From Deltaproteobacteria bacterium (GTDB lineage Bacteria; Desulfobacterota; GWC2-55-46; UBA9637), in the NCBI GenBank assembly GCA_016219285.1, contig JACRNJ010000010.1, positions 36,089 through 100,088 on the forward strand: a stretch of DNA of 64,000 nucleotides, written 5' to 3'. Below, piece after piece: positions 1 through 58,176 of this stretch (positions are counted from its first letter, which is position 1; each line of letters opens with the position of its first letter). Position numbers and translations under genes: made by a program. The notes beneath the pieces are model-generated. The model did not search any database, was not told where the DNA came from, and saw only the letters and a program-made list of their open reading frames with translations.

Positions 1-465
1 ATTCATGATATAGATATTATCATGAATTTTGTTAAATCAGAGGTTGAATCAGTGGATGTAGTCAGCATGCCTGTTATAACTGATAAGGCTGACATAGCAA
101 ATGCGCGTATAAGATTTGCAAATGGGTGTATTGCAAGTGTTACGGCAAGCAGGGTTTCAAATGAAAGGGCAAGAAAAATAACATTATTTCAGCGCGATGC
201 CTATATTATAATTGATTACGCAAATCAGAATATGGCAGTTTTCAGAAAGGCTTCCCCAAAAAACGGAGAACCGGCATATATTATGGAAGAAGATGTGAAA
301 ATAAAAAAGAATGACATCCTATTGGAGGAGATAAAGGCATTTGTCAGTTCAGTTATTACCAGAACTCCCCCTCTGGTTTCTGGAGAAGGCGGCAGAAGGG
401 CGCTTAAAGTTGCGCAGATGATACAAAAGGAAGTCAGGAGTCAGGAGTCAAGACTAAACATATGA
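1..465 (+). CDS. Gfo/Idh/MocA-family oxidoreductase, C-terminal part (5' end outside window)
   Basis: Open in frame from base 1 (IHDIDII...), so the start lies upstream of the window. C-terminal alpha/beta domain pattern of Gfo/Idh/MocA enzymes. Sits directly upstream of lpxB as in lipid A clusters. The last residues (EVRSQESRLNI) are encoded by a heptamer-array repeat. Confidence 0.6.
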   Translation: MHDIDIIMNFVKSEVESVDVVSMPVITDKADIANARIRFANGCIASVTASRVSNERARKITLFQRDAYIIIDYANQNMAVFRKASPKNGEPAYIMEEDVKIKKNDILLEEIKAFVSSVITRTPPLVSGEGGRRALKVAQMIQKEVRSQESRLNI

Positions 466-496
466 GAGATTTTCTCCTGACTTCTGACTCATGACT
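432..496. repeat. Inverted heptamer-array hairpin (AGTCAGG-type)
   Basis: agtcaggagtcaggagtcaag ... loop ... ctcctgacttctgactcatgact. Both arms are arrays of AGTCANN heptamers. Spans the stop of the upstream CDS and the lpxB start region. Confidence 0.7.
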
Positions 497-497
497 T

Positions 498-1646
498 ATG
501 ACTGTCTTTATAGTTGCTGGCGAAGCATCCGGAGATCTTCATGGTTCTAATCTCATAAAGGCCCTTAAAGAGGCGGATCCGTCACTTGAATTTTATGGTG
601 TTGGAGGGGAAAGGATGAGAGGTCTTGGTTTTCATGCGTTGGAAGACTCACGGGAACTTGCAGTGGTTGGTATTTCAGAGGTTGTTTTAAAATTAGGCAA
701 ACTTTTTTCTGTATTCAACAGACTCAAAAAAACTCTTGATGCAATAAGACCGGATGTTGTTGTCCTTATAGATTTTCCTGATTTTAACCTCCATGTTGCA
801 AAAGAGGCAAGAAAAAGAAAAATCCCTGTAGTGTATTACATAGGTCCTCAGGTGTGGGCATGGAGAAAGGGGAGAGTCAAGAAGATAGCAAGGCTTGTAA
901 GTAAGATGCTTGTTGTCTTTCCGTTTGAGGAAGATATTTACAAAAGCGCTGGTGTAAATGTGGAGTATATTGGCCATCCGTTAATAGGCACGGTATCATG
1001 CCAATTCTCTAAAGACGATGCGTTGTCAAGTTTGGGTATGGGTAATGGGCCGACGGTTGCGCTTCTGCCAGGCAGCAGAAGGCATGAGGTTGAAAGACTC
1101 CTTCCTGTTATGCTCGATGCGGCAGGCCTTATCAGGAAAGAGGTCAAGGGTGTTCAATTTATTTTACCTTTGGCAGACACGATAGAAGAGACCTTTGTAG
1201 AAGGTATTATTTCGGATTTCGGATTTCGGATTTCGGATTTGAAATCTCAAATCCGTGTTGTAAGGGACCGTTTTTATGAGGTGTTGAAGGCCTCTGATGC
1301 TGCAATTGTTGCCTCTGGCACGGCAACTCTTGAGACTGCCTTAATGGAGATTCCGATGGTTATCGTGTACAAGGTTTCTTTGCTGACCGCTATTATCGGC
1401 AGGATGTTTATAAATATTAATTACATAGGCCTTCCTAATATTGTGGCCGAAAAGGAGGTAGTGCCTGAGCTTGTGCAAGGCAATGCTAATCCTATTTCAA
1501 TAGCAAGAGAGATTTTAAGGTTTTTAAATGATAGCAACGAAAGAAATAGGACTATTTCCGATCTTAAGGATGTCGCAAACAAACTGAGAAAAGGCAATGC
1601 ATCAAAAAGGGCAGCAGAAGTAATATATAAAATAATTAGGAATTAG
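498..1646 (+). CDS. lpxB: Lipid-A-disaccharide synthase
   Basis: 382 aa. N-terminal VAGEASGDLHG motif, with length and overall pattern typical of GT19 LpxB. Lipid A gene neighbourhood. Confidence 0.93.
   Translation: MTVFIVAGEASGDLHGSNLIKALKEADPSLEFYGVGGERMRGLGFHALEDSRELAVVGISEVVLKLGKLFSVFNRLKKTLDAIRPDVVVLIDFPDFNLHVAKEARKRKIPVVYYIGPQVWAWRKGRVKKIARLVSKMLVVFPFEEDIYKSAGVNVEYIGHPLIGTVSCQFSKDDALSSLGMGNGPTVALLPGSRRHEVERLLPVMLDAAGLIRKEVKGVQFILPLADTIEETFVEGIISDFGFRISDLKSQIRVVRDRFYEVLKASDAAIVASGTATLETALMEIPMVIVYKVSLLTAIIGRMFININYIGLPNIVAEKEVVPELVQGNANPISIAREILRFLNDSNERNRTISDLKDVANKLRKGNASKRAAEVIYKIIRN
1210..1255. repeat. In-frame heptamer-array hairpin inside lpxB
   Basis: (TTTCGGA)x4 at 1210-1237 followed by the near-complement gaaatctcaaatccg. 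Translated as SDFGFRISDLKSQIR. Confidence 0.75.
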
Positions 1647-1655
1647 AAATTATTT

Positions 1656-3464
1656 ATGCAGCTCTATTTTCGTTTATTAAAATTTTTATTCCACTATTGG
1701 GCGCAGTTGGCATTGGCCATATTCTTTATGATAACCCTTGCGCTTTCCAACGGCGCAATGGCATATCTGATAGGACCTGTGCTTAAGTTCCTGTTTACCA
1801 ATAATGCAGATGATACAATACGGCTTATTCCCATAGACCTCTTTACATTCAATCGGGCGCAAATGCTTATAGCCGTGCCGTTAATTATTATATTTGTTGC
1901 GCTCATTAAAGGCCTCTCATTTTTCTGGCAGGCCTATTTTATGGGCCATGTTGGCCAGAAAATGGTTGCAGACATCAGACTGCATTTGTACCGGCATATC
2001 CTGAATCTCCCTATTTCATATTTTAGCAAGAGTTCCACCGGGCAATTGATATCAAGGATGACAAATGATGTGGGTATGCTGCAGAATACGGCTTCAAACT
2101 CAGTTGCAACTATCTTGAGGGAGAGTTTTTCAATAATAGTTCTTGCGACTGTGGTTATTACCAGAGATTGGAAACTTGCCCTGGCTGCCTTTGTTACATT
2201 TCCTCTTGCAATATATCCATTGGTAAGATTCTCAAAAAAGATGCGTAAGGTTTCAACCCAGGGGCAGGCAACTATGGGAGCTATGACAATTCTTATGCAC
2301 GAAGCAATAGCAGGCATACGTATTGTCAAGGCCTTTTGCATGGAGAAATACGAAGAGATGAGGTTTGGCAAGGAAAACGATAGATTTACGAAGTTCAGCA
2401 TGAAATCAATAAAGGTTCGGTCTATTTCATCGCCACTTATGGAGACACTGAGAGCGATAGGCCTTGCCTTTGCCATATGGTATGCAGCATACAGGATTCA
2501 AAATGGTTCATTGACGCCTGACGACTTCATATCTTTTTCTGCCGCCCTTTTGATGCTCTATCCGTCAATAAAGGCGCTCAATGGCGTTAATATGAATATT
2601 CAGCAGGGCCTTGCCGCTGCAGCGCGTGTATTTGAGCTTTTGGACGCCCCTCAGGAAACAAAGGATAAGGATGACGCAAAGAGGATTGATACTATCCGTC
2701 AGGGCATTGAATTTAAGGATGTGTCATTCAGATACGGCGAGAAATTGATTCTTGAAGGCATTAATCTTAAAGTTAGAAAGGGAGAGATTATTGCAATAGT
2801 AGGAACAAGCGGCGCTGGCAAGACAACATTTATTAACTTGCTTCCAAGGTTTTATGATGTAACGGAAGGGATTATTCTTTTTGACGATGTAGATATTAGA
2901 GATATAATAAAAAATTCCCTCAGATCTCAAATTGCTATAGTATCACAACAGGTTATTTTGTTTAATGATAGTGTAAGTAAAAATATTGCCTATGGTGATG
3001 TTACAAGGGATAGCAGAGATATAATAAGTGCGGCAAAGGCCGCCAATGCAGACAGCTTTATCAGAAAGCTGCCACAGGGATACGATACTGTAATCGGCGA
3101 AGGCGGCGTCAGGCTTTCAGGCGGAGAGAGGCAGAGGCTTTCTATTGCAAGGGCAATCCTTAAAAACGCCCCAATACTTATACTGGATGAGGCAACATCG
3201 TCTCTGGATACTGAATCTGAAATGGAAGTTCAGAAGGGGCTAAATAATCTTGTGCATGGAAGAACCACGTTTGTCGTTGCGCACAGGCTTTCTACCGTAA
3301 GGAATGCAGACAGGATTATTGTTCTATCTGACGGCGGAATAAAAGAGATGGGCAGGCATGAAGAGCTTTTAAAATTTGGCGGAGAGTATTCTCGTATTTA
3401 TAATATGCAGTTTCAAGGAGGAGATGAAATAAATCTCAAATCTCAAATTACAAATTACAAATAA
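1656..3464 (+). CDS. msbA: Lipid A export ABC transporter, permease/ATPase fusion
   Basis: 602 aa. Six-TM N-terminal half plus ABC ATPase with Walker A GTSGAGKTT, signature LSGGERQR and Walker B ILILDEATS. Located between lpxB and waaA. Confidence 0.88.
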   Translation: MQLYFRLLKFLFHYWAQLALAIFFMITLALSNGAMAYLIGPVLKFLFTNNADDTIRLIPIDLFTFNRAQMLIAVPLIIIFVALIKGLSFFWQAYFMGHVGQKMVADIRLHLYRHILNLPISYFSKSSTGQLISRMTNDVGMLQNTASNSVATILRESFSIIVLATVVITRDWKLALAAFVTFPLAIYPLVRFSKKMRKVSTQGQATMGAMTILMHEAIAGIRIVKAFCMEKYEEMRFGKENDRFTKFSMKSIKVRSISSPLMETLRAIGLAFAIWYAAYRIQNGSLTPDDFISFSAALLMLYPSIKALNGVNMNIQQGLAAAARVFELLDAPQETKDKDDAKRIDTIRQGIEFKDVSFRYGEKLILEGINLKVRKGEIIAIVGTSGAGKTTFINLLPRFYDVTEGIILFDDVDIRDIIKNSLRSQIAIVSQQVILFNDSVSKNIAYGDVTRDSRDIISAAKAANADSFIRKLPQGYDTVIGEGGVRLSGGERQRLSIARAILKNAPILILDEATSSLDTESEMEVQKGLNNLVHGRTTFVVAHRLSTVRNADRIIVLSDGGIKEMGRHEELLKFGGEYSRIYNMQFQGGDEINLKSQITNYK

Positions 3465-3547
3465 ATTTCAAATCCCAATTTGAAAAGCAAATATTTTTGG
3501 TATTTGGAATTTTGGTTATTATTTGAGATTTGCAATTTGATTTTTGG
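3428..3547. repeat. Long composite inverted heptamer-array hairpin
   Basis: aaatctcaaatctcaaattacaaattacaaata ... tatttgagatttgcaatttgattt. The left arm encodes the MsbA C-terminus (INLKSQITNYK). Confidence 0.65.
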
Positions 3548-3554: not shown

Positions 3555-4219
3555 ATGAAGAAGATACTAAATAAAATTACCATTGCCATAGCGCCGTTTT
3601 TGATATCGGTACTTATCAAATTTCTTGCCATGACCATGAGAATTTCCTATGTCAATTTTGCAAAGGATTGGAGAAGCGGTAGAAATGTAATCCTTGCATT
3701 CTGGCATGGAAGATTGTTGATGATGCCTGTTATGTGCTGTGGTGTCACAGTTCTTGTGAGCCAGCACAAGGATGGCGAGTTGATAGCAAGGGCGGTAAAG
3801 AGATTTAATATTGATTCTGTCAGGGGCTCTTCAACAAGGGGCTGGTTAGGCGGTGTAAGGGGGCTTTTAAATGCTGTCAAAAGAGGCAAGGATATAGCCA
3901 TAACGCCTGATGGTCCAAAAGGCCCAAAATTTAATGTACAGACTGGAATTATACATTTAGCAAAGCTAACAGGCCTTCCAATAATACCCATGACCTTCAG
4001 CGCTTCAAAAAAAAAACTTTTAAAAGCTGGGATGGTTTTATCATGCCTTATCCATTTTCCAAAGGCGTATTTATATGCGGCGCCCCCATCGTTGTAAATC
4101 GTGAGTCAACCGAACAAGAATTGGAACAAAAGAGGCTGATTTTGCAAAAAAGCCTTATAGAAATTACAGAAAGGGCGGATGATTATTTCAAAGTTAAAAT
4201 ATATGACTGCAATTCTTAA
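3555..4219 (+). pseudogene. DUF374-family (lysophospholipid acyltransferase-like) protein, interrupted by a frameshift in an A10 run
   Basis: ATG at 3555 (MKKILNKITIAIAP...). Conserved FWHGRLLMMP...SQHKDGELIARAV...ITPDGPKGP pattern of DUF374. After the A10 run (4007-4016) the family-like continuation SWDGFIMPYPFSKGVFICGAPI...* is in the -1 frame and ends at 4219. An 11th A would restore one ORF. Confidence 0.8.
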
Positions 4220-4244
4220 ATCCTAATGTCTAATTTCCAATGAA

Positions 4245-4273
4245 TCCTTGACAGGAATAATATCTGTCAAGGA
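4245..4273. repeat. YCCTTGACAG...CTGTCAAGGR hairpin
   Basis: tccttgacag-gaataatat-ctgtcaagga, a perfect 10-bp stem. Same stem family as 43890-44143 and 51506-51538. Confidence 0.7.
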
Positions 4274-4367
4274 TGAAATGTCCAATGACTAAATCTACAA
4301 TGTTTTGATTTTTATTTGACATTTGGTTTTTATTAGGAATTAGGATTTAGAAATTAGAAATTTTCTT

Positions 4368-5729
4368 ATGTATCTTTTCTACGACATCCTTCTTCACATC
4401 TCTCTCTTAATGCTTGCGCCGTATTTCCTTTTTAAGATGGCCTTTGCCGGGAAATATCGCAAGGGGGTTCTTGAAAGGTTTGGTTTTATAGGCGAAGAGA
4501 AACTTAAGAATCTTTACGACAAGAAAGTAGTTTGGTTTCATGCGGTTTCTGTTGGAGAGACAAAGGCGAGTATGCTGCTGCTGAAACATTTTAAAGAAAA
4601 ATATCCAGACGCAAAAATTATATTTTCCACTGTTACGGCAACCGGCAATGCAATTGCAATGAAGCAGGGGGCGCAATGGATTGACAGCCTTATCTATTTT
4701 CCATTTGACTTTCATTGGGTTGTTAACAGTGTTGTGAAAAGAATAAAACCAAAAGTTTTTATAGTAGTGGAGAAAGAGATATGGCCGAATATCCTCAAAG
4801 TCCTGAAAAAAAGCAATATTCCTGCATTGGTTATAAACGGAACCATATCTGACCGCTCCTTTAAGCGGTATAAAATGTTTGGATTTTTCTTTAAAAGGAT
4901 ATTCGGCAATATATCATGTTTTTTGTGCCAAACAAAAATGGACGGTGATAAGGCAATAGCCCTTGGAATAGAGCCTTCGAGGGTTATTGCTACAGGCAAT
5001 ATAAAATTTGATATAGAGTCTGCTCAGTGGAGCCCTTCTGAAAGGGATGTTGTTATGCGAGGGCTTAATATAACAGGCTATGATGATATCATTATTGCAG
5101 GAAGCACCCATGCAGGCGAGGAGGAGATTGTACTGGATGTTTTTAAAAGACTTAAGCAGGAGGTTTCAAATTTAAGAGTGATAATTGCGCCAAGACACCC
5201 GGAAAGGTTTAATGAGGTGGAAAGGCTTATAAAGGGAATGGGGTTTTCTATTACAAGAAGGTCTGTGATAAGAAGTCAGAAGCAAGAAGCAAGAAGCAAG
5301 AAGCAAGAAGCCCAAAAAAGTCTTGCCTCTTACCTCTTACCTATTGTCTCTCATCCGAAATCAGAAGTCATCCTTTTGGATACCATTGGCGAGCTTTGTA
5401 ATTTTTACAGTATTGCAACAATTGCCTTTGTTGGCGGCACCCTTGTAGATATCGGCGGGCATAATCTACTTGAGCCTGCCTTTTATAAGAAGCCTGTAAT
5501 TTACGGTAATTACCTTAAAGGCTATACTGGAATGGCAAATATGCTTGAAACAGCCGGCGGCGGCATACGAATAAAAAATGGAGAGGAATTTTTTGAGAAG
5601 GCGAAACAGCTGCTCATGGATGATGTATATAGCCAGAAGGTTGGCAGTGCGGCTTACAGCGTGGTTCTTGCCAACAAAGGCGCAACAGATAAATGTCTGA
5701 AGATTTTGGAAGGGTTATTTGGGGAATGA
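4368..5729 (+). CDS. waaA: 3-deoxy-D-manno-octulosonic acid (Kdo) transferase
   Basis: 453 aa. N-terminal membrane anchor, WFHAVSVGE motif, GT30-like C-terminal half. Lipid A/Kdo context. Confidence 0.9.
   Translation: MYLFYDILLHISLLMLAPYFLFKMAFAGKYRKGVLERFGFIGEEKLKNLYDKKVVWFHAVSVGETKASMLLLKHFKEKYPDAKIIFSTVTATGNAIAMKQGAQWIDSLIYFPFDFHWVVNSVVKRIKPKVFIVVEKEIWPNILKVLKKSNIPALVINGTISDRSFKRYKMFGFFFKRIFGNISCFLCQTKMDGDKAIALGIEPSRVIATGNIKFDIESAQWSPSERDVVMRGLNITGYDDIIIAGSTHAGEEEIVLDVFKRLKQEVSNLRVIIAPRHPERFNEVERLIKGMGFSITRRSVIRSQKQEARSKKQEAQKSLASYLLPIVSHPKSEVILLDTIGELCNFYSIATIAFVGGTLVDIGGHNLLEPAFYKKPVIYGNYLKGYTGMANMLETAGGGIRIKNGEEFFEKAKQLLMDDVYSQKVGSAAYSVVLANKGATDKCLKILEGLFGE
5272..5350. repeat. In-frame heptamer-array hairpin inside waaA
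   Basis: (AGCAAGA)x4 at 5281-5308, with imperfect complement tcttgcctcttacctcttacc at 5321-5341. Translated as RSQKQEARSKKQEAQKSLASYLLPIV. Confidence 0.7.
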
Positions 5730-15112: not shown

Positions 15113-15114
15113 CC

Positions 15115-18191: not shown

Positions 18192-19517
18192 ATGATGAAA
18201 CGGAGAAGCGGAGATAGGGAGAATCGGAGAAAGGGAAAGTCTTTATTCCCCGCTTCCCCGCTTTCCCGCTTCTCCGGTTCACGGTTTTCTGTCCCCGGTT
18301 TTAAAGCTGCCGGTATTGCCTGTGGCATCAAGCATGTCCCCGCAGGCTTTAAGCAGGGAAAGAACGGCAATAAAGACCTTGCCATGATATATTCGGAGTC
18401 GGCTGCTGTTGCAGCAGCCGTGTTTACAAAAAATAAAGTAAAGGCAGCGCCTGTCTTGCTTGATATGCAGAGGCTCAAAAAAGGTTTGTGTCAGGCAATA
18501 ATTATAAACAGCGGAAATGCAAATGCCTGCACAGGCAAAAAAGGCATGGAAGATGCGGCGCGGATGGCTGCGACAGTTGAAGATGTGCTTGGAATAAAAA
18601 AGGGTTTTGTCATGGTTGCGTCAACAGGCGTTATTGGACAGAATCTTCCGATTGACAAGATAGAAAAGGGGATCTCAAAACTTGTTTCGTCTCTTTCAGC
18701 AAAAGGGTGGAATGATGCGGTTCATGCCATTATGACCACAGATGCCTTTCCTAAAGCTGTGTTTGAAAAATGCAGGCTCGGCGGAAAAGAGATTTCTGTT
18801 TTAGGCATTGCCAAAGGCGCGGGCATGATATGCCCGGACATGGCTACTATGCTGGCGTTTCTGGCAACTGATGCTGCAATAGAACAAAAGACTTTGCAAG
18901 CGATGTTGAAGTTATCGGTTGATAATTCGTTTAACTGCATTACTGTTGACGGAGATACATCTACGAATGATACTGTGCTGATACTTGCAAATGGAAAGGC
19001 CGGGAATAAAGAAGTCAGGAGCCAGAAGTCAGGAGTCAGGAGTAAAGACTATAAAACCTTTTCTGAGATGTTGGAAAGAGCCTGTTTGAAACTTGCAAAG
19101 ATGGTTGTCATGGACGGCGAAGGCTCGACAAAGCTGTTGAAGCTTCATGTGAGCGGCGCAAAGACAGATAGTGACGCAAAAAAGATTGCTGAGACTGTTG
19201 CAAATTCGCCGCTTGTGAAGACGGCATTTTTCGGGGAAGACGCAAATTGGGGAAGGATTATGGCGGCAATAGGCCGTTCAGGCGCGGATATGAAACAAGA
19301 AAAGATTAATGTGTATTTCAATAATGTGCCTGTTGTAATGAAGGGGCAGGGGGCAGCATGCAAGGGGCAAGATAGAGAAAAGATGGCTGCAAAGGCTGTG
19401 AAGCAAAAAGAGGTTTGTATAAGGATTGAACTGGGTATGGGCAGGGGGATTGCAACTGTCTGGGCAAGCGATCTGTCGTATGAATATGTTAGGATAAATG
19501 CAGCGTACAGAACGTAG
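18192..19517 (+). CDS. argJ: Bifunctional ornithine acetyltransferase / N-acetylglutamate synthase
   Basis: VPGFKAAGIACGIK near the N-terminus, autoprocessing-region ATMLAF/TDA pattern, C-terminal SYEYVRINAAYRT. Start placed at ATG 18192, because the ORF-track start at 18105 overlaps secA and is unlikely. Confidence 0.9.
   Translation: MMKRRSGDRENRRKGKSLFPASPLSRFSGSRFSVPGFKAAGIACGIKHVPAGFKQGKNGNKDLAMIYSESAAVAAAVFTKNKVKAAPVLLDMQRLKKGLCQAIIINSGNANACTGKKGMEDAARMAATVEDVLGIKKGFVMVASTGVIGQNLPIDKIEKGISKLVSSLSAKGWNDAVHAIMTTDAFPKAVFEKCRLGGKEISVLGIAKGAGMICPDMATMLAFLATDAAIEQKTLQAMLKLSVDNSFNCITVDGDTSTNDTVLILANGKAGNKEVRSQKSGVRSKDYKTFSEMLERACLKLAKMVVMDGEGSTKLLKLHVSGAKTDSDAKKIAETVANSPLVKTAFFGEDANWGRIMAAIGRSGADMKQEKINVYFNNVPVVMKGQGAACKGQDREKMAAKAVKQKEVCIRIELGMGRGIATVWASDLSYEYVRINAAYRT
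18201..18276. repeat. Inverted purine/pyrimidine-rich array hairpin at the argJ 5' end
   Basis: cggagaagcggagatagggagaatcggagaaagggaaag ... ttccccgcttccccgctttcccgcttctccg. A related arm occurs at about 50905-50935. Confidence 0.65.
18330..18359 (+). repeat. PAGFKQG hairpin element, copy b (in frame in argJ)
   Basis: aagcatgtccccgcaggctttaagcaggga. Differs at two positions from the sense strand of the lysA copy. Confidence 0.85.
19012..19045. repeat. GTCAGGA-type heptamer array inside argJ
   Basis: aagtcaggagccagaagtcaggagtcaggagtaa, translated EVRSQKSGVRSK. No obvious complementary arm nearby. Confidence 0.6.
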
Positions 19518-21981: not shown

Positions 21982-21984
21982 GGA

Positions 21985-22066
21985 AAATGCAAAAATGAAA
22001 AATGAAAAATTAAAAATTAAAAATAAAAATTTGCAATCTAAAATTTGCAATTTGCAATTTGCAATT
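21985..22066. repeat. A-rich and ATTTGCA heptamer tandem arrays at the pilW 5' end
   Basis: aaaatgcaaaaatgaaaaatgaaaaattaaaaattaaaaat ... aatttgcaatttgcaatttgcaatt. Encodes the unusually long PilW leader. Confidence 0.6.
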
Positions 22067-23086
22067 AAACAACAAGGCTTTTCCCTCGTTGAACTTTTAG
22101 TTGCAATGGTTGTTGCTTCAATTGTGGGTATGGCAGGGTATGTTATATTTTCATCCAGCAGCTGGTCTTATAAGGTTCAGGAGGATGTCTCTGAGGTACA
22201 GCAGAATGTGCGGGTGGCGACTGACATGCTTGCAAAGGATATAAGATTAGCTGGTTTTGGCCTGCCTGACCCGCCTTTTTCACTTACCATAGGCAGTCAA
22301 ACTTTCACATCTCCTATAACCGTTACTAACAGCTCAACAGGGCCTGATACAATAACGGTAGTTGGTATTGGATTTGAGGCAGGAACGCTCCTTATAGGCG
22401 CTGCTACTGATTGTAATAACAGCGGAACGGGTAAGATATGCCTTGATAGTGTTGAGAGCGCTAATAATTTTTTTGGCTCTTCGCCTTCTTATGTTTATAA
22501 TACCGATAAAAAATATATAAGCCTTAACGGCACAACTTTTATAGAACTCTCTATCACACAAACCGAGAGGACATCTGCCAAACTAACATTAGAAACTCCA
22601 TCTGCCCTTGACATAAACTACCCTGACGGCACCACTGTCTATATTATCCAGGCGATTACCTATACAATAAATACCGCCCTAACCGGATGCTCAGCAACAA
22701 ATCCATGTCTTGCAAGGCAAGACCTTGCTGGCAATAATACAGTCTTTGCTTCAGGCATAGAAGACATCCAGTTTGCCTATGGCATAGATGAAAGTCCGAG
22801 GGATGGGAAGTTAGATGACACTGCGGATGGAACTGCTGGTTATGCGGCTACAGATTTCCTCAATGCCCCGACAGACCCTTCCAGCATAATAGCAGTGAAG
22901 GCAAATATAGTGGGAAAGACAAGGAATACAGATTCAAGAGGGGGAACATTTAGAAGGCAATGTCTGGAAGACCGTTCTGCTGATACGACAACATGCGGCA
23001 CAGCGCAGGCGCCTGTAACTGACGGCTACAGACGCAGGGCGCTTACAAAGATGATAAAACTCAGAAATCCAAGACAAGGGGCATAG
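21995..23086 (+). CDS. pilW: Type IV pilus assembly protein PilW
   Basis: QG/FSLVELLVAMVVASIVGMAGY prepilin-like segment. Size and operon position fit PilW. The true start is uncertain because the leader is repeat-encoded. Confidence 0.7.
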   Translation: MKNEKLKIKNKNLQSKICNLQFAIKQQGFSLVELLVAMVVASIVGMAGYVIFSSSSWSYKVQEDVSEVQQNVRVATDMLAKDIRLAGFGLPDPPFSLTIGSQTFTSPITVTNSSTGPDTITVVGIGFEAGTLLIGAATDCNNSGTGKICLDSVESANNFFGSSPSYVYNTDKKYISLNGTTFIELSITQTERTSAKLTLETPSALDINYPDGTTVYIIQAITYTINTALTGCSATNPCLARQDLAGNNTVFASGIEDIQFAYGIDESPRDGKLDDTADGTAGYAATDFLNAPTDPSSIIAVKANIVGKTRNTDSRGGTFRRQCLEDRSADTTTCGTAQAPVTDGYRRRALTKMIKLRNPRQGA

Positions 23087-23111
23087 GAAGATTCAAGATT
23101 CAAGATTCAAG

Positions 23112-23684
23112 ATGAAAGCGGTGATTATTATGAAATTACTAAACAATGAAAGGGGCGCAATCCTTATCACCATGCTCCTCCTTATGGTCATTGTTACACT
23201 TATAGGGGTCATAGCCATAAATACAACAACAGTGGATATGCAGATAACAGGGAATTTAAAGAGGGTCTCAACAGCCTTTGAGGGCGCAGAGGCAGGGATT
23301 GACCTCGCCATTCCTATTATAGAAAATTCATTAGCATCTGGCCAGCTTACAACGTCAAACACGGCCATTTCAACTGCCTTTAATTTTACATCAGGTTCAG
23401 GAACCACTGCAAGTCTCGATACAACCAATTCGCCATCTCTTGGCGATGAAATAACAGGTAGTTCAAGTTATAATACTGATACTCCAAATTCATCCCCGCC
23501 GGATTTATCCATCACCAATCTCAACGGGGTTGCAGTCAATGTAGATATAGACCGGCTCTATTCATATGCGCTGCCAGGCGGTTCGCTTGAGTTTGCCGCA
23601 GGGTATGAAGGTGTTGGCGTAGGCGCCGCAGGAGGCGGCGCTGGTGTGCTTTATTCAATAGATAGCCAAGGAACAATAGAGTGA
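23112..23684 (+). CDS. pilX: PilX-like minor pilin
   Basis: ERGAILITMLLLMVIVTLIGVIAINTTTVDMQI matches the PilX N-terminal domain pattern. The start may be ATG 23130. Confidence 0.65.
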   Translation: MKAVIIMKLLNNERGAILITMLLLMVIVTLIGVIAINTTTVDMQITGNLKRVSTAFEGAEAGIDLAIPIIENSLASGQLTTSNTAISTAFNFTSGSGTTASLDTTNSPSLGDEITGSSSYNTDTPNSSPPDLSITNLNGVAVNVDIDRLYSYALPGGSLEFAAGYEGVGVGAAGGGAGVLYSIDSQGTIE

Positions 23685-36392: not shown

Positions 36393-36424
36393 TATAAAAG
36401 AAGGAGGTGAAATAATTATTTTCA

Positions 36425-36490
36425 TTTACGATTTACGAATTACGATTTAAGATTTTAAATTCCTCAATCTGAAATCGTAAATCTCAAATC
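36425..36490. repeat. Inverted heptamer-array hairpin (TACGATT-type) upstream of nirS
   Basis: tttacgatttacgaattacgatttaag ... ctgaaatcgtaaatctcaaatc. Confidence 0.65.
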
Positions 36491-36510
36491 ACAATAAGGA
36501 GGTTAAACAG

Positions 36511-38151: not shown

Positions 38152-38163
38152 AAATTAGGATAT

Positions 38164-38216
38164 GGGATGTGGGAAGTGGGATGTGGAAAAAATCGCGTCC
38201 CACAAACCACACATCC
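38164..38216. repeat. Inverted heptamer-array hairpin (GGGATGT-type)
   Basis: gggatgtgggaagtgggatgtgg ... tcccacaaaccacacatcc. A related arm lies at about 54485-54530. Confidence 0.65.
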
Positions 38217-38786: not shown

Positions 38787-38788
38787 AT

Positions 38789-38843
38789 ACAGACTACAGA
38801 TTGCAGACTACAGACTGAAGTTTCTATAGTCTGTAGTCTGTGG
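38789..38843. repeat. Inverted heptamer-array hairpin (CAGACTA-type)
   Basis: acagactacagattgcagactacagactg ... tagtctgtagtctgtgg. Confidence 0.7.
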
Positions 38844-40385: not shown

Positions 40386-40467
40386 GCAAGGGGTAAATAG
40401 TCGATTGTCGATTTTCGATTGTCGAATTTAAAATCGTAAATCGTAAATCAAAAAACGAGGTTTATCT

Positions 40468-41715
40468 ATGCTGGGCGTTACAAAACTTTTATGCGAAACC
40501 ATGACGACGGAGAGAGGTGTTGCCGGTAAAGGGCACGGTCACGGCGTATCTCCAAGGCTTCTCCAGTTTTCAGAAGTCAAGAGACCCATCGTTGTCTGGA
40601 ATATTACCAAGAGATGCAACTTGAGGTGTATTCACTGTTACTCCGATTCACTCAATCAGGATTATCAGGGTGAATTGATGACCGAAGAGGCAAAGCAGGT
40701 AATAGACGACCTGGCTGGTTTTGGGGCGCCTGTTATAATCTTTTCAGGCGGCGACCCGCTTTTGAGAAATGATATATTTGAAATTGCAAACTATGCAGGC
40801 TCAAAGGGCATAAGGTGCGCGCTATCCACAAATGGTGTTTTGATAGACAAGGCAACTGCAAAGGCGATTAAGGATGCAAACTTTGCCTATGTTGGTGTGA
40901 GTATAGACGGCATTGGTGAATTTAATGACAGGTTCAGGGGTATGATTGGCGCTTATAATATGGCATTAGAAGGCATACGAAACAGCAGAGACGCGGGTGT
41001 GAGGACAGGCCTGCGTCTTACCCTGAATAAGAGGACACTGCCTCAGCTTCCGGCCATATTTGATTTGGCAGAGGCGGAAAACATCCCCAGGGTTTATATA
41101 TCACATCTTGTATATGCAGGTCGTGGAAATAAAATTAAAAAGGATGATTTAAGCCATGAAGAGACAAGGAAGGCATTGGATTTCATATTTGAAAAGGCAA
41201 TTGAATTTCATCAAAAGGGATTAGAGAAGGATGTGCTTACAGGCAATAACGATGCAGATGGAGTTTATCTTTATCTCAAAGTAAAGAGAGAAGATGAAGC
41301 AAAGGCTGAAAAGATTTACAAGCTTTTAAAGATGAGGGGAGGGAACAGCTCAGGCACTGCCATTGGCTGTATTGATAATATAGGCAATGTGCATGCAGAC
41401 CAGTTTTGGAGCCGCTACTCATTTGGCAATGTGAAAGAGAAAACCTTTAGCCAGATATGGACAGACACAAAAGACCCTGTCATGTGCGGGCTTAAGAATA
41501 AAAAAGAGTCTGTAAGGGGCAGGTGCGGCCACTGTTCATATCTTGATATATGCGGTGGAAACTATAGGGTGAGGGCAGAGGCAATATATGGAGATGTATG
41601 GGCAGAAGACCCTGCTTGCTATTTGGCAGACGAGGAAATAGGGATAAAGAGGCAGGCAATAGGCAATGGGCAAGAGGCAATAGGAGAAGAGAAACGATAT
41701 GCAGAAATTGTATAA
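40468..41715 (+). CDS. nirJ: Heme d1 biosynthesis radical SAM protein NirJ
   Basis: 415 aa. CNLRCIHC radical SAM cluster motif, C-terminal Cys-rich auxiliary cluster region (CGHCSYLDICGG). The last ~25 residues are encoded by a GGCAATR heptamer array (41651-41684). Confidence 0.85.
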   Translation: MLGVTKLLCETMTTERGVAGKGHGHGVSPRLLQFSEVKRPIVVWNITKRCNLRCIHCYSDSLNQDYQGELMTEEAKQVIDDLAGFGAPVIIFSGGDPLLRNDIFEIANYAGSKGIRCALSTNGVLIDKATAKAIKDANFAYVGVSIDGIGEFNDRFRGMIGAYNMALEGIRNSRDAGVRTGLRLTLNKRTLPQLPAIFDLAEAENIPRVYISHLVYAGRGNKIKKDDLSHEETRKALDFIFEKAIEFHQKGLEKDVLTGNNDADGVYLYLKVKREDEAKAEKIYKLLKMRGGNSSGTAIGCIDNIGNVHADQFWSRYSFGNVKEKTFSQIWTDTKDPVMCGLKNKKESVRGRCGHCSYLDICGGNYRVRAEAIYGDVWAEDPACYLADEEIGIKRQAIGNGQEAIGEEKRYAEIV

Positions 41716-47343: not shown

Positions 47344-48078
47344 CTATATTCCCTCTATTTTATCTTTACTATCTATTTTTATCCCTCTTTTTCTCATAGT
47401 ATCCTTTATAACCTTAAGTTTCCAATCCCTGTGGTTATTTATTATTGATAAAACCTCTTTTGGTTTATCGGTTATTTTGACAAGCTCCATATCCTCTGCT
47501 GATATGGTTTTGCTCTTCAACATTGTTGTCTTCATCCAATGGAGCAGGCCGCTCCAATAATCCTTTCCAACAAGAATCAAAGGCAATGGATATATCTTGT
47601 GGGTTTGGATAAGCGTGAGCGCTTCAAAGAACTCATCAAGGGTCCCAAACCCGCCAGGCATACAGACATAGCCCATAGCATATTTTATAAACATCACCTT
47701 TCTGGCGAAGAAGTATTTAAATGTCAAAGATTTGTTCTGAAACGGATTAGGTTTTTGTTCTTTTGGCAAAAGTATATTTAAACCTACAGAGGCGCCGTCA
47801 TTGGTTATAGCGCCTTTGTTGGCTGCCTCCATGACACCAGGCCCCCCGCCAGTTATAATGGTATACCCGTTTTTTACAAGAAGAGTGGAAATTTCCAGAG
47901 TCTGTTTATAATATTTATGATTTCTATGAAATCTTGCTGAACCGAATATGGATACAGCCGGTCCTAGTGTTGAGAGCTCTTCAAAACCCTCCACAAATTC
48001 ACTTATTATCTTGAATATGCGCCATGTTTCCTGACCCTTCAAATCCTCAACCATGTTTCCGGAAAACTCAAATCCCAA
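47344..48078 (-). CDS. LOG-family (TIGR00730) nucleotide phosphoribohydrolase
   Basis: PGGFGTLDEFFE and GGGPGVMEAAN motifs. The first residues overlap a repeat hairpin, so the start may be the downstream ATG (MVEDLKG). Confidence 0.85.
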   Translation of the reverse strand: MGFEFSGNMVEDLKGQETWRIFKIISEFVEGFEELSTLGPAVSIFGSARFHRNHKYYKQTLEISTLLVKNGYTIITGGGPGVMEAANKGAITNDGASVGLNILLPKEQKPNPFQNKSLTFKYFFARKVMFIKYAMGYVCMPGGFGTLDEFFEALTLIQTHKIYPLPLILVGKDYWSGLLHWMKTTMLKSKTISAEDMELVKITDKPKEVLSIINNHRDWKLKVIKDTMRKRGIKIDSKDKIEGI

Positions 48079-48219
48079 ATTACAAATCCCAAATAATAAT
48101 TAATTATTCAATAAACAAAGCTTGAAGCAGCATGGTTATTGAAATTTGATTATTGGCTATTATTTGTTATTTGATATTTGTTTATTGAAATTTTCATCCC
48201 CCTTTCTATCATATATATT

Positions 48220-50366: not shown

Positions 50367-51002
50367 CTATTTCAACACTGCAACCAACCCATCTGCCGCT
50401 ACAAGTTGGACCTCAAGGGTCGCCTCTGCGCTGCCGTCATCCTTATATTCCTCTTTAACCACGATTGCGCCTTTTACAAAACCCTCTATGCGGGTTATTT
50501 CTATATGTTTTTCATCAAGGTATTCTTTCATGCCTTTGTCAGGCGGCGTTTTCATCTTCAATATTATCTCAAGCAGGTTTTTCTGTGCCTCTACAATTGC
50601 TGCGCGCATGACAAGTATTTTTGCCTGAGCTGGATTTGTAATGTGTTTCGGCGGCAGGCCGCGGCCGGTCGCACTTATTACACCCTTCTGCCAATTAACA
50701 CCAGTCACATCTGAGACAACCAGTGCGCCTTTATAAGCCTCCGCAGAAATAGCCTCGGCAGACGGCGCTACCTCGGCCTTTTTTTCCACTACTGAAATTT
50801 TAGTTTCTTCTTTTACAGGCTCCTCTTTCTTGCCACAGGCGGTTAATGATACAGCAAACAGGAAGCAGGAAACAGTAAACAGTAATAAAAATGAAAAACG
50901 AATTTCCCCGCTTCTCCCTTTCTCTGTTTCAGTCCTTTTCTTGAGGATCTGTTGCCCCTTGACTTCTGACACTACGGCACTCCGGCACTTTGACATTTTC
51001 AT
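50367..51002 (-). CDS. LPP20-like lipoprotein
   Basis: Lipobox SLTACG. Mature-part pattern (ISATGRG.P.......AQAKILVMRAAIVEAQKNLLE) resembles the LPP20 family. The N-terminal extension is repeat-encoded, so the start is uncertain. Confidence 0.5.
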   Translation of the reverse strand: MKMSKCRSAVVSEVKGQQILKKRTETEKGRSGEIRFSFLLLFTVSCFLFAVSLTACGKKEEPVKEETKISVVEKKAEVAPSAEAISAEAYKGALVVSDVTGVNWQKGVISATGRGLPPKHITNPAQAKILVMRAAIVEAQKNLLEIILKMKTPPDKGMKEYLDEKHIEITRIEGFVKGAIVVKEEYKDDGSAEATLEVQLVAADGLVAVLK

Positions 51003-56160: not shown

Positions 56161-58176
56161 TATGGTTGGATCAGGAATAAATGCTGGCCGCCACTCATTG
56201 ATTTCCAGATGGCGGCGGATTTCCTGCTCAAATCCTTCTGGTATATCGTAATATGTCCTGATAAAGAGATTTATATCAGCAGGCAACGGTTCTTTTTTAC
56301 CCGCGCAAAGCTCTATATAGTTTTTTAATTTTATTTTCCTGCCTTCTGTCGTGTCGTTAGGCCTGATACAGAGTTTAGCTGCAAGAGGCAGGGCTTGCTC
56401 AATAGTTTCAGCAAAACATAAAAGGTGTTGCGGCGCAGGGCCTGTTGGGACTATATCCCCGAGTCTCGTATCCTTTACCTGCCAGAGTCTATCCTGCCCG
56501 ATAAGGTGAATACCATAGTTTTTGAACATCGGCCCGAAGATAACAGGGATGCCGAGCCTTGCCATACCCAGCGCAGAAGAGAATGCCTTCTGCGTGAATG
56601 CGCCCCAGAGTATTACTACTGCGCCAACCCTGTTTATTATATAGTCTGCAATTTCTTTGTAATTATTCTCCGGTTTTCTGTGGCACATTATCTGGGCGAT
56701 TTTTATGCAGGCCCCGATAAGATGAGAAGCAGATACACATGAACCAAGATTTGTTAGGTTTCTGCTGTCAAAAGAGTCAGGATTGTCTTTGAACAAATCT
56801 CCTTTTGCAACATCCATTGAGGCACAGCCGCCAGTGGAAACAATATATCCCCTATTTAGAAATTCTCGGGCAAACATATTAGCAATTGAATCTTCTGGCT
56901 TCTGACTTCTGACTTCTGACTTCTGACTTGCCTCCGGACATCCAAATATCCCTACAATTCCGGGAATCTCACCCATCACAATAGACGGCGCAACTCCCCT
57001 TATTTCACCATCTCGTATAGGGCCGCGGCCAATCCGTAAAAAAGAGTTCGGGGTTCGGAGTTCGGAGTTCGGAGTTTTACTGCCTGCTGCCCCCTGCTTA
57101 AAGCCTGCAGGGGCAGGCCCCTGCCCACTGCCTACTAACTTCAATGCTGCCTCTGCTGCCTTTTTCTTATCCAGAATAATACCCGTCCCATTCTTCAAAA
57201 TATATTCTGACGACTTGTCCAACGGCATGTCCGTTAAATCTCTAAGTCCAAGCGCCGTCTCTTGTGTTGTTGCAATAAGCATACTATTAACCTTACCCGC
57301 CTCGGCAACCACATCCGGCCTTATGCACTGTGTGTCCATAATAACAACATCCGCAATGCCTGATTTAATAACATCCAATTGCATAGCCTGATTGCCTATT
57401 ACCTTAAAACCATGACTATGCCTCGCTGAATCTGATGCTGCACAGCACAGGCCGCAGACCTCCACCTTATCCTTAATACCTCTACTTTCAAGAAGGTGCA
57501 TAATTTCATGGGCAACAGATGAGTTGTGACCAATTATAAGTATTACAGGCTTTGATGTATCAACAGTTTCTAATCCGATAGCTATTATTGGCGAATTGGA
57601 TTCGCCCTTTGGCATGTTCATGGCAGATATCTGCGCAATGTCTGCCACTTCCATGGCAAGGTTATCCAGCATACCTGCATGAAGCGTCTTGCTTACAAAA
57701 TCATCAGGGGATGCCTCTGTGCCGAAGTTTATGGAGGAGAGGAGGTGATTTAACTGGCCTTCTATATAGGTAAGAATATTTCTCAACTCACCCATGTTTT
57801 TTGGCTTACAGCCTGTTATAAGCGTTGTGATTGGAGTTGCTATAGCGGTATGCAGGCCGGTATCTACACGACACTCTTTATCGAACCTGTCTATTAAGTT
57901 TTCTATAAGTCTTACAGCGTGAGATGTATGACCCGATGTTCCTATAACAGCATCTAATAAAATCTCTCTTGCCTTGAAACCAGTTTCATCAATGCCGCAT
58001 TTTCCAACCCCCCCTCCCCCCCCCTTTGTTAAATGGGGGGCAGGGGGGGTTGGCCTGCACGGCCCCATGGCACACAGGTGGCAGGCCTTATTAGACTTTG
58101 AAAATATTGGCAGGTATCTTTCAAGCAGGGTTAAATCCCAGTCTCTTAAATCAAATATATCTAAATATGGTTTCAT
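56155..58176 (-). CDS. Ni-CODH (CooS)-like protein, prismane/CODH family, carrying several repeat-derived in-frame inserts
   Basis: 673 aa. The following line up with CooS B- and C-cluster regions: C-x2-C-x4-C (CHLCAMGPCR) then KCG, GTSGHTSHA, IIGHNSS, CGLCCAA, MDTQCIRPD, GGCASMD, LGSCVSA. Enzyme specificity not established. Confidence 0.55.
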   Translation of the reverse strand: MKPYLDIFDLRDWDLTLLERYLPIFSKSNKACHLCAMGPCRPTPPAPHLTKGGGGGVGKCGIDETGFKAREILLDAVIGTSGHTSHAVRLIENLIDRFDKECRVDTGLHTAIATPITTLITGCKPKNMGELRNILTYIEGQLNHLLSSINFGTEASPDDFVSKTLHAGMLDNLAMEVADIAQISAMNMPKGESNSPIIAIGLETVDTSKPVILIIGHNSSVAHEIMHLLESRGIKDKVEVCGLCCAASDSARHSHGFKVIGNQAMQLDVIKSGIADVVIMDTQCIRPDVVAEAGKVNSMLIATTQETALGLRDLTDMPLDKSSEYILKNGTGIILDKKKAAEAALKLVGSGQGPAPAGFKQGAAGSKTPNSELRTPNSFLRIGRGPIRDGEIRGVAPSIVMGEIPGIVGIFGCPEASQKSEVRSQKPEDSIANMFAREFLNRGYIVSTGGCASMDVAKGDLFKDNPDSFDSRNLTNLGSCVSASHLIGACIKIAQIMCHRKPENNYKEIADYIINRVGAVVILWGAFTQKAFSSALGMARLGIPVIFGPMFKNYGIHLIGQDRLWQVKDTRLGDIVPTGPAPQHLLCFAETIEQALPLAAKLCIRPNDTTEGRKIKLKNYIELCAGKKEPLPADINLFIRTYYDIPEGFEQEIRRHLEINEWRPAFIPDPTIL
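56892..56930. repeat. (TTCTGAC)n heptamer array inside the CooS-like gene
   Basis: cttctgacttctgacttctgacttctgactt. Sense-strand translation SQKSEVRSQKPE. Confidence 0.8.
57044..57078. repeat. (GTTCGGR)n heptamer array inside the CooS-like gene
   Basis: gagttcggggttcggagttcggagttcggagtttt. Sense translation KTPNSELRTPNS. Confidence 0.8.
57089..57119 (-). repeat. PAGFKQG hairpin element, copy e (in frame in the CooS-like gene)
   Basis: The reverse complement is ggcctgcccctgcaggctttaagcagggggc, identical to the secA copy. Confidence 0.85.
58004..58053. repeat. C-run/G-run hairpin in frame in the CooS-like gene
   Basis: ccaaccccccctccccccccctttgttaaatggggggcagggggggttgg. Sense translation PTPPAPHLTKGGGGGVG, located between the CxxCxxxxC motif and the next Cys. 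Confidence 0.7.

Follow-up and report, generated by a model that had tools for sequence, protein, structure and literature searches.

The window, a stretch of 64,000 nt from an uncultured member of the Desulfobacterota, contains about 20 loci with tandem arrays of heptameric or octameric units, corresponding to a density of about one array per 3 kb. These arrays lie within or between genes such as lpxB, msbA, waaA, argJ and the nir genes, and many are joined to a second array of complementary units to form a hairpin. The individual loci are as follows.

432..503: hairpin; the 5′ arm (AGTCAGG x2.7) is the C-terminal tail of ORF 22-465 (stop codon 463-465), the 3′ arm (CCTGACT/TCTGACT/CATGACT/TATGACT) includes the lpxB ATG at 498; z = −3.8.
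1209..1255: hairpin within lpxB; ATTTCGG x4.6 (100% matches), then GAAATCTCAAATCCG (GAAATCT CAAATCC); in frame and translated (ISDFGFRISDLKSQIR), encoding SDFGFRISDLKSQ, an insert of about 8–9 aa compared to distant orthologues.
1634..1652: array only; AATTAGR x2.7, spanning the lpxB stop codon.
3431..3547: long hairpin; AAATCTC/AAATTAC units form the last ~11 MsbA residues, and the complementary GAGATTT/GCAATTT units of the 3′ side end 8 nt upstream of the ATG of the DUF374 gene at 3555.
4207..4362: composite hairpin upstream of waaA; outer arms of TCCTAAT-type and ATTAGGA x4.4 enclose inner hairpins.
5270..5342: array within waaA; AGAAGTC/AGAAGCA x6 and TCTTGCC/TCTTACC x3, about 26–29 extra residues (IRSQKQEARSKKQEAQKSLASYLLPIVS).
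18197..18280: octamer hairpin, 13 nt past the secA stop codon; GAAGCGGA x4.4 / TTCCCCGC x4.4; N-terminal extension of ArgJ (ATG at 18192) in the sole available argJ frame; z = −4.6.
19010..19043: array only, in argJ; AGTCAGG/AGAAGTC x4.4, a 12-aa insert (VRSQKSGVRSKD) compared to a solved ornithine acetyltransferase.
21984..22069: two arrays of weak mutual complementarity, AAAAATG/AAAAATT and AATTTGC; leader of a PilW-like pilin, upstream of the N-methylation motif.
23088..23113: array only; AAGATTC x3.7, within the 25 nt that separate the PilW-like from the PilX-like gene.
36424..36494: hairpin; ATTTACG x4.6 / AAATCGT-type x4.1, ending 17 nt upstream of the nirS-like ATG.
38158..38216: hairpin, 7 nt past the nirS-like stop codon; GGATGTG x4.1 / CCACACA-type; z = −4.1.
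38788..38843: hairpin, 2 nt past the stop codon of ORF 38169-38786; TACAGAC x4.1 / TCTGTAG x2.7; z = −4.1.
40400..40449: hairpin at the nirN-like / nirJ junction; GTCGATT x3.7 / AAATCGT x2.7.
41654..41684: array only; AGGCAAT x4.4, the C-terminal tail of NirJ.
48069..48193: long hairpin at the junction of guaA and a LOG-family gene (both minus strand); CAAATCC-type / TTATTTG-type; z = −3.2.
50851..50929, minus strand: array ACAGGAA x4.6 with a pyrimidine-rich partner, TTCCCCGCTTCTCCC (partner p = 0.02); hydrophobic core of a lipoprotein-type signal peptide.
56892..56929: array only; CTTCTGA x5.4 (coding-strand unit TCAGAAG), by which a CdhA-like CO dehydrogenase subunit gains the insert SQKSEVRSQKPE.
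57044..57076: array only; GAGTTCG x4.7, in the same CdhA-like gene.
61176..61328, minus strand: wide hairpin directly past the argH stop codon; AGTGAAA x4.4 / CACTTTGA-type arms; a REP-like module is nested in its loop, and one arm forms a lipoprotein signal-peptide core.

An initial annotation of this DNA had described the in-frame lpxB hairpin (as 1210-1255) and the design of array, spacer and complementary array. Both were confirmed, and all loci listed in it exist, but it left out 4207-4362, 48069-48193, 50851-50929, 23088-23113 and 1634-1652. The hairpin it had placed at 18201-18276 as heptameric has a period of 8. At 5272-5350 in waaA the extra residues are real, but the hairpin is weak on the plus strand (z = −0.8) and the other strand pairs better. 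Its impression of a different heptamer at each locus was correct in that many units occur, but arose from a small sample: AGTCAGR-type units are present at about 4-5 loci of the window (including 432, 5270, 19010 and 56892), and GATTT/AAATC-type units at 1209, 3431, 36424, 40400 and 48069.

Period-7 arrays are far above background frequency, with 18 observed in the window and 0.1 expected from dinucleotide shuffles, while periods between 1 and 21 that are not multiples of 7 yielded 0–3 arrays each; TRF reported more than 25 period-7 rows. A reverse-complement partner (empirical p ≤ 0.05, range 200 nt) was found for 15 of 24 arrays (~60%), compared to 1.2 expected, and paired arrays are 0–95 nt apart. 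Nine of ten hairpins fold at z = −2.9 to −4.6; array-only loci show no folding. The longer arm is the 5′ arm in 9 of the 13 tabulated pairs, which fits a parent array with a partial copy, and like variant units adjoin each other (e.g. AAATCTC x2 followed by AAATTAC x2, or ATTAGGA x2). As had been stated before, the hairpins differ from ordinary terminators. A G+C-rich stem followed by a T/U tract, as in intrinsic terminators, is not seen in them, and a consensus scan for terminators and promoters between 36 and 42 kb called none of the four array hairpins, whose stems are AT-rich and not followed by a T run.

It is extremely improbable that the arrays are an artefact of short-read metagenome assembly. 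The window does originate from a metagenome-assembled genome, and at the arrays Logan contigs break and word depth is inflated. Nevertheless, the same architecture is present in independent NCBI, ENA and JGI assemblies, in the complete sequence CP061800 of the isolate Desulfonema magnum and in cultured Anabaena and Microcystis, and essential genes stay in frame through the arrays. The genome paper of D. ishimotonii does not mention these repeats. Joints in Logan contigs ('skips 102', 'goes back 42'), which break at arrays, were not taken as alleles; most likely they represent other loci with the same array.

Hairpins are concentrated at gene junctions (10 of 12, p ~1e-8), where they lie between co-directional genes, begin 0–27 nt past a stop codon and have their 3′ edge about 17–21 nt upstream of the next start. 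The remaining copies are genuine in-frame inserts in LpxB, WaaA, ArgJ and the CdhA-like protein, in agreement with the earlier remark that intragenic copies keep the frame; distant orthologues are devoid of the inserts and do not encode the same residues from non-repetitive DNA. Copies at junctions are mostly paired and intragenic copies mostly array-only.

The closest relatives, groundwater 'Deltaproteobacteria'/Thermodesulfobacteriota MAGs, show rapid turnover of the arrays, with units replaced in register. Unit number and sequence change quickly at lpxB, waaA and the nir junctions when the window is compared to its close relatives (L001, L081, L098-L100). At the lpxB site, the ATTTCGG x4 of the window is replaced in relative L001 (93% aa identity) by different units that fill the same seven slots. 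The waaA arrays of the window and L098 are equally long but differ in one unit (AGAAGCA in the former, AGGAGTC in the latter), and the orthologues form a series from no insert via an array only (L100) and AGRAGTC with ACTCCNA (L099) to AGAAGCA with TCTTRCC (window, L098), both arms changing together. The site keeps the frame in every aligned sequence (34 WaaA relatives and 15 LpxB). The msbA/DUF374 hairpin (3431..3547) is present in L099 and missing in L100, which has a spacer of 3 nt at this position. At the nir junctions whole hairpins are swapped for other hairpins between close relatives, including L081, and a hairpin directly follows the nirS-like stop codon in 6 of 6 relatives, with unrelated sequences. 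The hairpin at 36424..36494 is conserved in L081, and a similar one occurs at an unrelated locus in L110.

This distribution could reflect selected intercistronic RNA stem-loops that stabilise mRNA, serve as processing sites or couple translation, as in REP/BIME, with the 7-nt period as a local way of building stems. We consider this possible but doubtful. The position of 10 of 12 hairpins between stop and start codons of co-directional genes, the hairpin past the nirS-like stop codon in all six relatives, the co-varying arms in waaA and the prevalence of pairing at junctions are in favour of it, and the cyanobacterial literature proposes such a role for the STRR hairpins that separate hupS from hupL. 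However, the sense strand has no advantage: among 28 hairpins the sense strand folded more stably than the antisense strand in 13 (p = 0.57), and G-U pairs did not differ between the strands. In addition, hairpins also lie inside lpxB, waaA and the 5′ end of argJ, the msbA/DUF374 junction is empty in L100, and a search of the window with Rfam covariance models matched only a tRNA and assigned the hairpins to no family. A look for RNA sequencing runs that contain this DNA returned none.

In the source metagenome the word depth at arrays is 50-250x that of their flanks, and dozens of different flanks adjoin them. Together with a CGATTTA hairpin at three non-orthologous loci, the replacement of whole junction hairpins and the fact that true small palindromic elements move in the source genome, this is what non-autonomous MITE- or REPIN-like elements would produce, if tandem heptamers served as terminal inverted repeats for a trans-acting transposase. 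Such an origin is nevertheless quite improbable. Comparison of same-unit hairpins and of empty and filled sites revealed no shared loops, fixed ends or target duplications, and hairpins of the same unit have only this unit in common, without common core or fixed length, in contrast to a genuine 84-nt element in nirN. Dozens of unit families would require dozens of cognate enzymes, and array-only loci and in-register unit turnover are unlike transposons. REP sequences are defined by a family-wide conserved sequence, non-periodic arms and a cognate RAYT transposase. The window arrays resemble REP/BIME/REPIN as short multi-copy imperfect palindromes in intercistronic positions, thought to form mRNA stem-loops, but share no palindrome conserved in all copies, and they differ from MITEs in having neither target-site duplication nor shared interior. 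Integron attC sites were discarded (core flanking genes, periodic arms), as was CRISPR (contiguous units without spacers, core flanking genes).

The preference for period 7 extends beyond the window. At 80 lpxB loci from Desulfobacterota, arrays of periods 7, 8, 9 and 6 numbered 51, 25, 13 and 7, and in 849 kb from many phyla 350, 35, 20 and 23, respectively. AGTCAGR arrays occur in more than 120 contigs of many phyla, from Cyanobacteria to Acidobacteriota, Bacteroidota and Desulfobacterota. A limited set of heptamers recurring across loci and phyla might represent arrayed sites for a protein that reads about 7 nt per subunit, either IHF/HU-like on duplex DNA or OB-fold/Csp-like on a single strand, inverted pairs binding two oligomers. 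The same architecture was read as global-regulator sites in Geobacter metallireducens, a partner protein was likewise speculated for heptamer repeats of Nostoc, CspB has been reported to bind one heptamer per monomer, and a directional binder could account for an intrinsic polarity of the arms. We hold little confidence in this reading, since dozens of unrelated units occur in one genome, close relatives carry entirely different units at the same orthologous site, arrays lie inside ORFs of unrelated housekeeping genes and no gene emerged as a candidate.

Reports of heptanucleotide arrays in bacteria date back to 1990. The window arrays belong to this known but unexplained kind, the long heptanucleotide SSR or STRR-like repeats, as they have at least three head-to-tail 7-nt units, dispersed recurring families and rapid change between relatives. 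The statement of the initial annotation that no element class of this design is described therefore does not hold; cyanobacterial STRR, the GGGAATC pairs of Xanthomonas and the paired sites of G. metallireducens all match it. Cyanobacterial STRR are hairpin-forming tandem 7-bp units at many loci, often within operons (hupS-hupL), for which transcript stability or translational coupling has been proposed. Vioque (1997) reportedly found helix P12 of RNase P RNA to be lengthened by STRR, with unrelated units in closely related strains. In the strict sense STRR denotes the units STRR1-3 of heterocyst-forming or filamentous cyanobacteria, whereas the window has other units in an uncultured host from the Desulfobacterota. 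The window further differs from STRR in its density, its many copies translated as in-frame inserts, and its purine-first polarity and arm co-variation, which we did not find described for STRR.

The 15 of 24 window arrays with a partner resemble the inverted pairs of Xanthomonas and G. metallireducens. Xanthomonas genomes contain GGGAATC arrays of 2–26 units, with 70–75 cases per genome of two close convergent arrays on opposite strands, and at a given intergenic site related species differ extensively in array length and sequence (Rehm et al. 2015, PMC4692102). They consist of one dominant G-rich unit, read as quadruplex-forming, and are intergenic only, whereas the window has many AT-rich units without G4 potential. 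In G. metallireducens, paired 'global regulator binding sites' of classes 1–3 and GGGACCG x4 elements comprise 3–5 tandem units of 7–9 nt, mostly in opposite-strand pairs at variable distance, with tens of copies, some intragenic (Aklujkar et al. 2009, PMC2700814). The AGTCAGR unit of the window corresponds, as reverse complement, to MTYCTGA, the unit of class 3; each class has one consensus unit, and the sites were interpreted as putative binding sites of IHF/HU-type proteins. As cited in two later papers (PMC4679880, PMC4692102), Mrazek et al. (2007) found heptanucleotide repeats over-represented in bacteria, with period 7 as the preferred long SSR in many genomes, and proposed polymerase slippage; inverted pairing was not handled as a general feature in these earlier surveys. 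TAACTGA repeats are common to Beggiatoaceae, cyanobacteria and Bacteroidetes and directly adjoin start codons (PMC4679880), but are almost all direct (one indirect out of 170 sets in the Guaymas genome), whereas window arrays are mostly paired. Contingency-locus SSRs are similar in their intra-ORF position and a unit that is not a multiple of 3, by which a one-unit change shifts the frame. The host genes in the window are however housekeeping genes (lpxB, waaA, argJ), and the relatives' alleles are all in frame without sign of on/off switching.

The explanation we prefer, with about even chances of being correct, is that the arrays are hypermutable heptanucleotide microsatellites of the STRR/long-SSR kind, generated by a DNA-level process and then filtered by selection. 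Slipped-strand mispairing in a register of about 7 nt, more rarely of 8–9 nt, would create the arrays and turn them over. MutS-type mismatch repair acts on loops of up to ~4 nt, so that heptamer-size loops are too large for it. Intrastrand fold-back or template-switch copying might then mirror an array, giving array, short spacer and complementary array, and quasi-palindrome correction would keep both arms alike, although arm co-variation is just as well compatible with selection for pairing. Slippage and fold-back are proposed from assembled contigs only. Selection would merely filter the outcome, as the pattern of surviving copies suggests. In intercistronic spacers nearly all survivors fold on themselves, which may rejoin stop and start. 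Within genes they are stop-free on the coding strand and located in C-terminal tails, N-terminal leaders or signal peptides, and surface loops, with net length changes that are multiples of 3 nt (three units, 21 nt, equal 7 aa). In RNA the junction copies are predicted to form stable intercistronic stem-loops, and an effect on mRNA stability or translational coupling would be secondary. The DNA-level origin is favoured because housekeeping enzymes, in which an RNA hairpin would serve no evident purpose, carry inserts, and because folding shows no strand asymmetry. Nevertheless, the hairpin kept past the nirS-like stop codon in every relative looks like selection for structure, against a pure DNA-level model, and the same heptamers at unrelated loci and in unrelated phyla (AGTCAGR, CGATTTA) are not predicted by random seeding.

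A strong purine-first polarity is likewise not predicted by a symmetric model of slippage and fold-back. The purine-rich arm is the 5′ arm in 58 pairs and the 3′ arm in 5; the composite hairpin at 4207..4362 is the sole, weakly pyrimidine-first case in the window. A coding filter is not sufficient as its cause, since pairs with both arms outside long open frames retain the polarity (24:4 and 16:1). A general property of hairpins was rejected too, as non-periodic hairpins in the same DNA are purine-first in a ratio of only 169:120. We found no description of this polarity in the literature on STRR or other heptamer arrays. One could imagine that inverted heptamer-array hairpins are pan-bacterial, self-generating palindromic elements with an intrinsic purine-5′/pyrimidine-3′ polarity on both strands, produced or maintained by a directional process or factor in 7-nt register; a polymerase or repair step or a heptad-reading protein may be candidates. 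We regard this idea as unlikely. If true, the hairpins would be more than a passive by-product of slippage, and the recurrence of units such as AGTCAGR across phyla would reflect the sequence preference of the directional mechanism.

As the lineage is rich in arrays and many relatives are sequenced, gain, loss, unit replacement and mirroring can be traced at orthologous sites, even inside essential genes. The joint change of arms, the cross-phylum recurrence of units and the strict purine-first polarity offer handles for experimental work in tractable carriers such as G. metallireducens, Anabaena and Xanthomonas. On the practical side, arrays fragment short-read assemblies, lead gene callers to add spurious N- or C-terminal extensions, and leave conserved enzymes with low-complexity peptide inserts such as SQESEVR.

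The source genome also contains separate ordinary REP-like modules. The 84-nt element in nirN (39871-39953) has defined ends, a fixed length, a target-site duplication, similar full-length copies and a common loop or core.

A simple period scan detected 18 period-7 arrays in the window compared to 0.1 in dinucleotide-preserving shuffles, so the heptamer arrays noticed in the initial annotation are clearly above background; the other periods from 1 to 21 yielded 0-3 arrays each, the multiples 14 and 21 excepted. Tandem Repeats Finder reported more than 25 period-7 rows. An array was taken to have a partner where its reverse complement matched the 200 nt flanking it more closely than it matched 95% of control windows; this held for 15 of 24 arrays (1.2 expected). 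Single-strand folding resulted in z-scores of -2.9 to -4.6 at 9 of 10 hairpin loci, and array-only loci tested alongside as single strands did not fold. Sense and antisense strands folded equally well (13/28, p = 0.57). In a scan of 36-42 kb the hairpins were not terminator-like, and Rfam returned no family match for them.

All loci listed in the initial annotation are present. The lpxB hairpin (1209-1255) comprises 4.6 perfect copies of ATTTCGG followed by GAAATCTCAAATCCG and is indeed translated in frame within LpxB as ISDFGFRISDLKSQIR. The supposed heptamer hairpin at the argJ 5' end (18197-18280) has period 8, and the waaA hairpin exists at its locus but is weak on the + strand. Overlooked loci are 4207-4362, 48069-48193, 50851-50929, 23088-23113 and 1634-1652. 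The sole strong non-heptamer microsatellite of the window is a perfect pentanucleotide array, (CAACT) x9.8, at 7031-7079, and three perfect tandem copies of the 26-nt unit TAAGTAAGTCTGACCCCTGCCCCACC are found at 29652-29730, at the 3' end of ORF 28714-29658.

The window has a G+C content of 43.5% and is about 90% coding when maximal ORFs are used. For LpxB and the NirN-like protein, the closest relatives come from groundwater MAGs that carry the label Deltaproteobacteria or Thermodesulfobacteriota. Pfam confirmed LpxB, MsbA, DUF374, WaaA, SecA, ArgJ, PilW- and PilX-like pilins, three cytochrome d1 proteins, NirJ, GuaA, a LOG-family protein, a Prismane/CO-dehydrogenase protein, a PLP decarboxylase and ArgH. 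The protein encoded at 56155-58176 (-), previously labelled CooS-like, is closest to CdhA, the archaeal-type acetyl-CoA decarbonylase/synthase alpha subunit (E = 1.7e-139); it lacks a middle segment of about 94 residues of solved chains. A tRNA gene (47180-47253) marks the switch of gene orientation from the + to the - strand. Between waaA and secA lies a block of about 9.7 kb (5730-15445; 46.6% G+C vs 40.1% upstream) with ankyrin-like 90-nt repeats (8255-8447) and a C-terminal motif of about 99 nt common to three ORFs (7938, 8904, 11251). In the related sequences L098-L100 secA directly follows waaA.

Ten of 12 hairpins are located at junctions between genes of the same direction (p about 1e-8). 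Their starts range from 33 nt ahead of the upstream stop codon to 27 nt past it, with hairpin 36424, further downstream behind another element, as sole exception, and they end 17-21 nt ahead of the next start where that start is clear. Thus, the spacer essentially consists of the hairpin and the ribosome-binding site. In three cases the 3' arm extends into the next gene (lpxB ATG, LOG start, lipoprotein signal peptide). Two small lipoprotein-like ORFs, 50367-51002 (-) and 61110-61331 (-), with lipoboxes LTAC|G and VIGC|G, have signal-peptide hydrophobic cores encoded by heptamer arrays. Both carry the complementary arm inside an unusually long N-terminal extension, which in one of them also holds a REP-like module; a canonical start codon nearer the signal peptide was not found for 61110-61331 (-).

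Judged by orthologue alignments, the intragenic copies are real insertions and add residues to four proteins.

Extra residues at intragenic arrays
LpxB: +8-9 aa vs distant orthologues, +5 aa vs E. coli LpxB
WaaA: about +26-29 aa vs orthologues of 35-50% identity and Aquifex WaaA
ArgJ: +12 aa vs solved ornithine acetyltransferase
CdhA-like protein: +7-9 aa vs solved CdhA

Within ORFs, all units lack stop codons on the coding strand; the recurring unit AGTCAGR is translated into SQESEVR-type peptides in four different proteins.

Orthologous sites differ strongly between relatives. At lpxB, L001 (93% amino acid identity) shares the seven 7-nt slots but fills them with different units (ATTTTGG ATTTTAA ATCTCAA ACCCCAG ACCTCAA ATCTCAA ATCCATG; in the window ATTTCGG x4 ATTTGAA ATCTCAA ATCCGTG), L002 has a 9-nt repeat and L003 nothing; Desulfonema magnum lpxB has heptamer hairpins of its own. 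The waaA insert site is hypervariable among 34 relatives: the DNA reads AGGAGTC x5 alone in L100, AGRAGTC x4 + ACTCCNA x4 in L099, and AGAAGCA x3-4 + TCTTRCC x3 in L098 and the window, which are separated by one whole unit in register. According to this series the 3' arm follows the 5' arm. The msbA/DUF374 hairpin is shared with L099, and L100 has a 3-nt spacer without hairpin. In the nir cluster hairpin 36424 is conserved in L081, and at four other junctions each relative carries some other element: a heptamer hairpin that differs from the one in the window, a hairpin built from 6- or 9-nt units, a plain hairpin, or a REP-like element rich in G+C.

Since an inverted repeat U...rc(U) is identical on both strands, the order of its arms is an intrinsic property and not a matter of strand choice.

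Arm order of paired arrays
AGTCAGR arrays: pyrimidine-rich partner downstream 24, upstream 0
All period-7/8 pairs: 5' arm purine-rich 58, pyrimidine-rich 5
Both arms outside 100-codon open stretches: purine-rich 5' arm 24 vs 4
Both arms outside 70-codon open stretches: purine-rich 5' arm 16 vs 1
Non-periodic hairpins, same DNA: purine-rich 5' arm 169 vs 120
Window pairs: purine-first 6, one weak exception

Periodic and non-periodic hairpins differ in polarity (Fisher p = 2e-9, calculated from an earlier 63:4 tally of periodic pairs, not 58:5).

We favour an origin of the hairpins at the DNA level, with selection acting afterwards as a filter. Slippage in a 7-nt register would generate arrays, fold-back would then mirror an array into a complementary arm, and quasi-palindrome correction could follow. 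In intercistronic spacers self-folding copies would persist; within ORFs only stop-free, frame-neutral copies would, in tails, leaders and loops. Slippage and fold-back would account for the observed turnover of units in register, the runs of one and the same variant unit, the array-only-to-paired series at a single site, the strand symmetry of folding and the inserts in housekeeping enzymes. The main alternative, that the hairpins are kept by selection as intercistronic RNA stem-loops, is favoured by their regular positions and by the fact that all relatives retain a hairpin of some kind behind the nirS-like stop.

Period-7 and period-8 array hairpins occur at many Desulfobacterota lpxB loci, including D. 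magnum, Desulfatirhabdium and Desulfaltia. Two arrays on the D. magnum chromosome (L043) are far longer than any in the window: about 50 CAAATNN units (355 nt) immediately upstream of lpxB at 4647-5001, and 19 ACACCTA units at 1233-1369. Canonical units recur across unrelated sources. An exact scan for AGTCAGR x4 matched at least 120 contigs, the matches listed coming from Cyanobacteria, Acidobacteriota, Verrucomicrobiota, Bacteroidota, Nitrospirota, Bacillota and Chloroflexota. Among the matches listed, 849 kb of these contigs contained 350 period-7 arrays (period 8: 35; period 6: 23; period 9: 20), and 61 of 327 arrays had a strong inverted partner vs 6-7 in controls. In the source metagenome the word depth of the window's arrays is 50-250 times that of their flanks, with dozens of different flanks. 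A CGATTTA hairpin occupies two window loci and one non-orthologous locus in a relative.

The initial annotation knew of no described element class; the architecture has, however, been described under several names. These are STRR hairpins of cyanobacteria, convergent GGGAATC arrays of Xanthomonas, paired tandem-repeat sites of G. metallireducens, which include the reverse complement of AGTCAGR, heptanucleotide long SSRs and TAACTGA repeats, and the heptamer repeats of Nostoc that influence recF and recO expression. None of them comes with a mechanistic explanation. The window is an unusually dense case of this architecture. Cross-phylum unit sharing, arm co-variation and polarity are additions that were not found in the literature so far as accessible.

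Palindromic elements of other kinds are also present. An 83-84-nt palindrome whose terminal inverted repeats are 15 nt long (ACCCCGTTAGAAGCT...AGCTTCTAACGGGGT) lies in frame inside the nirN-like gene (39871-39953; second copy 36307-36389), with a GTTGAC direct repeat on its flanks. The 28 residues that it adds, VDPVRSSPIDKQSTLNTNLSPIEKASNG, are missing from all five relatives, the closest included, and the element resembles a recent MITE-like insertion within coding sequence. This mobile palindrome has a shared loop, ends and target duplications, whereas copies of the heptamer arrays have none of these in common and share the unit alone. Ordinary REP-like modules (GTAGTTGCCGATTTATCGGCGTTTTTAAA, CCCCGCAGGCTTTAAGCRGGG, ATACGCCCATAAATGGGCAGCTAC) form a separate family.

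REP-like modules in the window
19514-19567
20007-20035
35014-35056
41730-41810
44009-44051
53274-53316
55084-55135
61229-61280
Further sites: 6351, 18035, 18330, 20876, 41756

The middle module CCCCGCAGGCTTTAAGCRGGG is translated as PAGFKQG in SecA (18035-18064) and ArgJ (18330-18359); L100 lacks the ArgJ copy. In relatives, a composite REP-like element of high G+C content, CACCCTCCCCTTAATCCCCTCCCGTCAAGGGAGGGG...CCCTCTCCCCTTGCGGGAGAGGGTCAGGGTGAGGGG (L081 5758-5880; L085 5175-5309, 5860-5975 and 7291-7360), sits at the very junctions that hold heptamer hairpins in the window.
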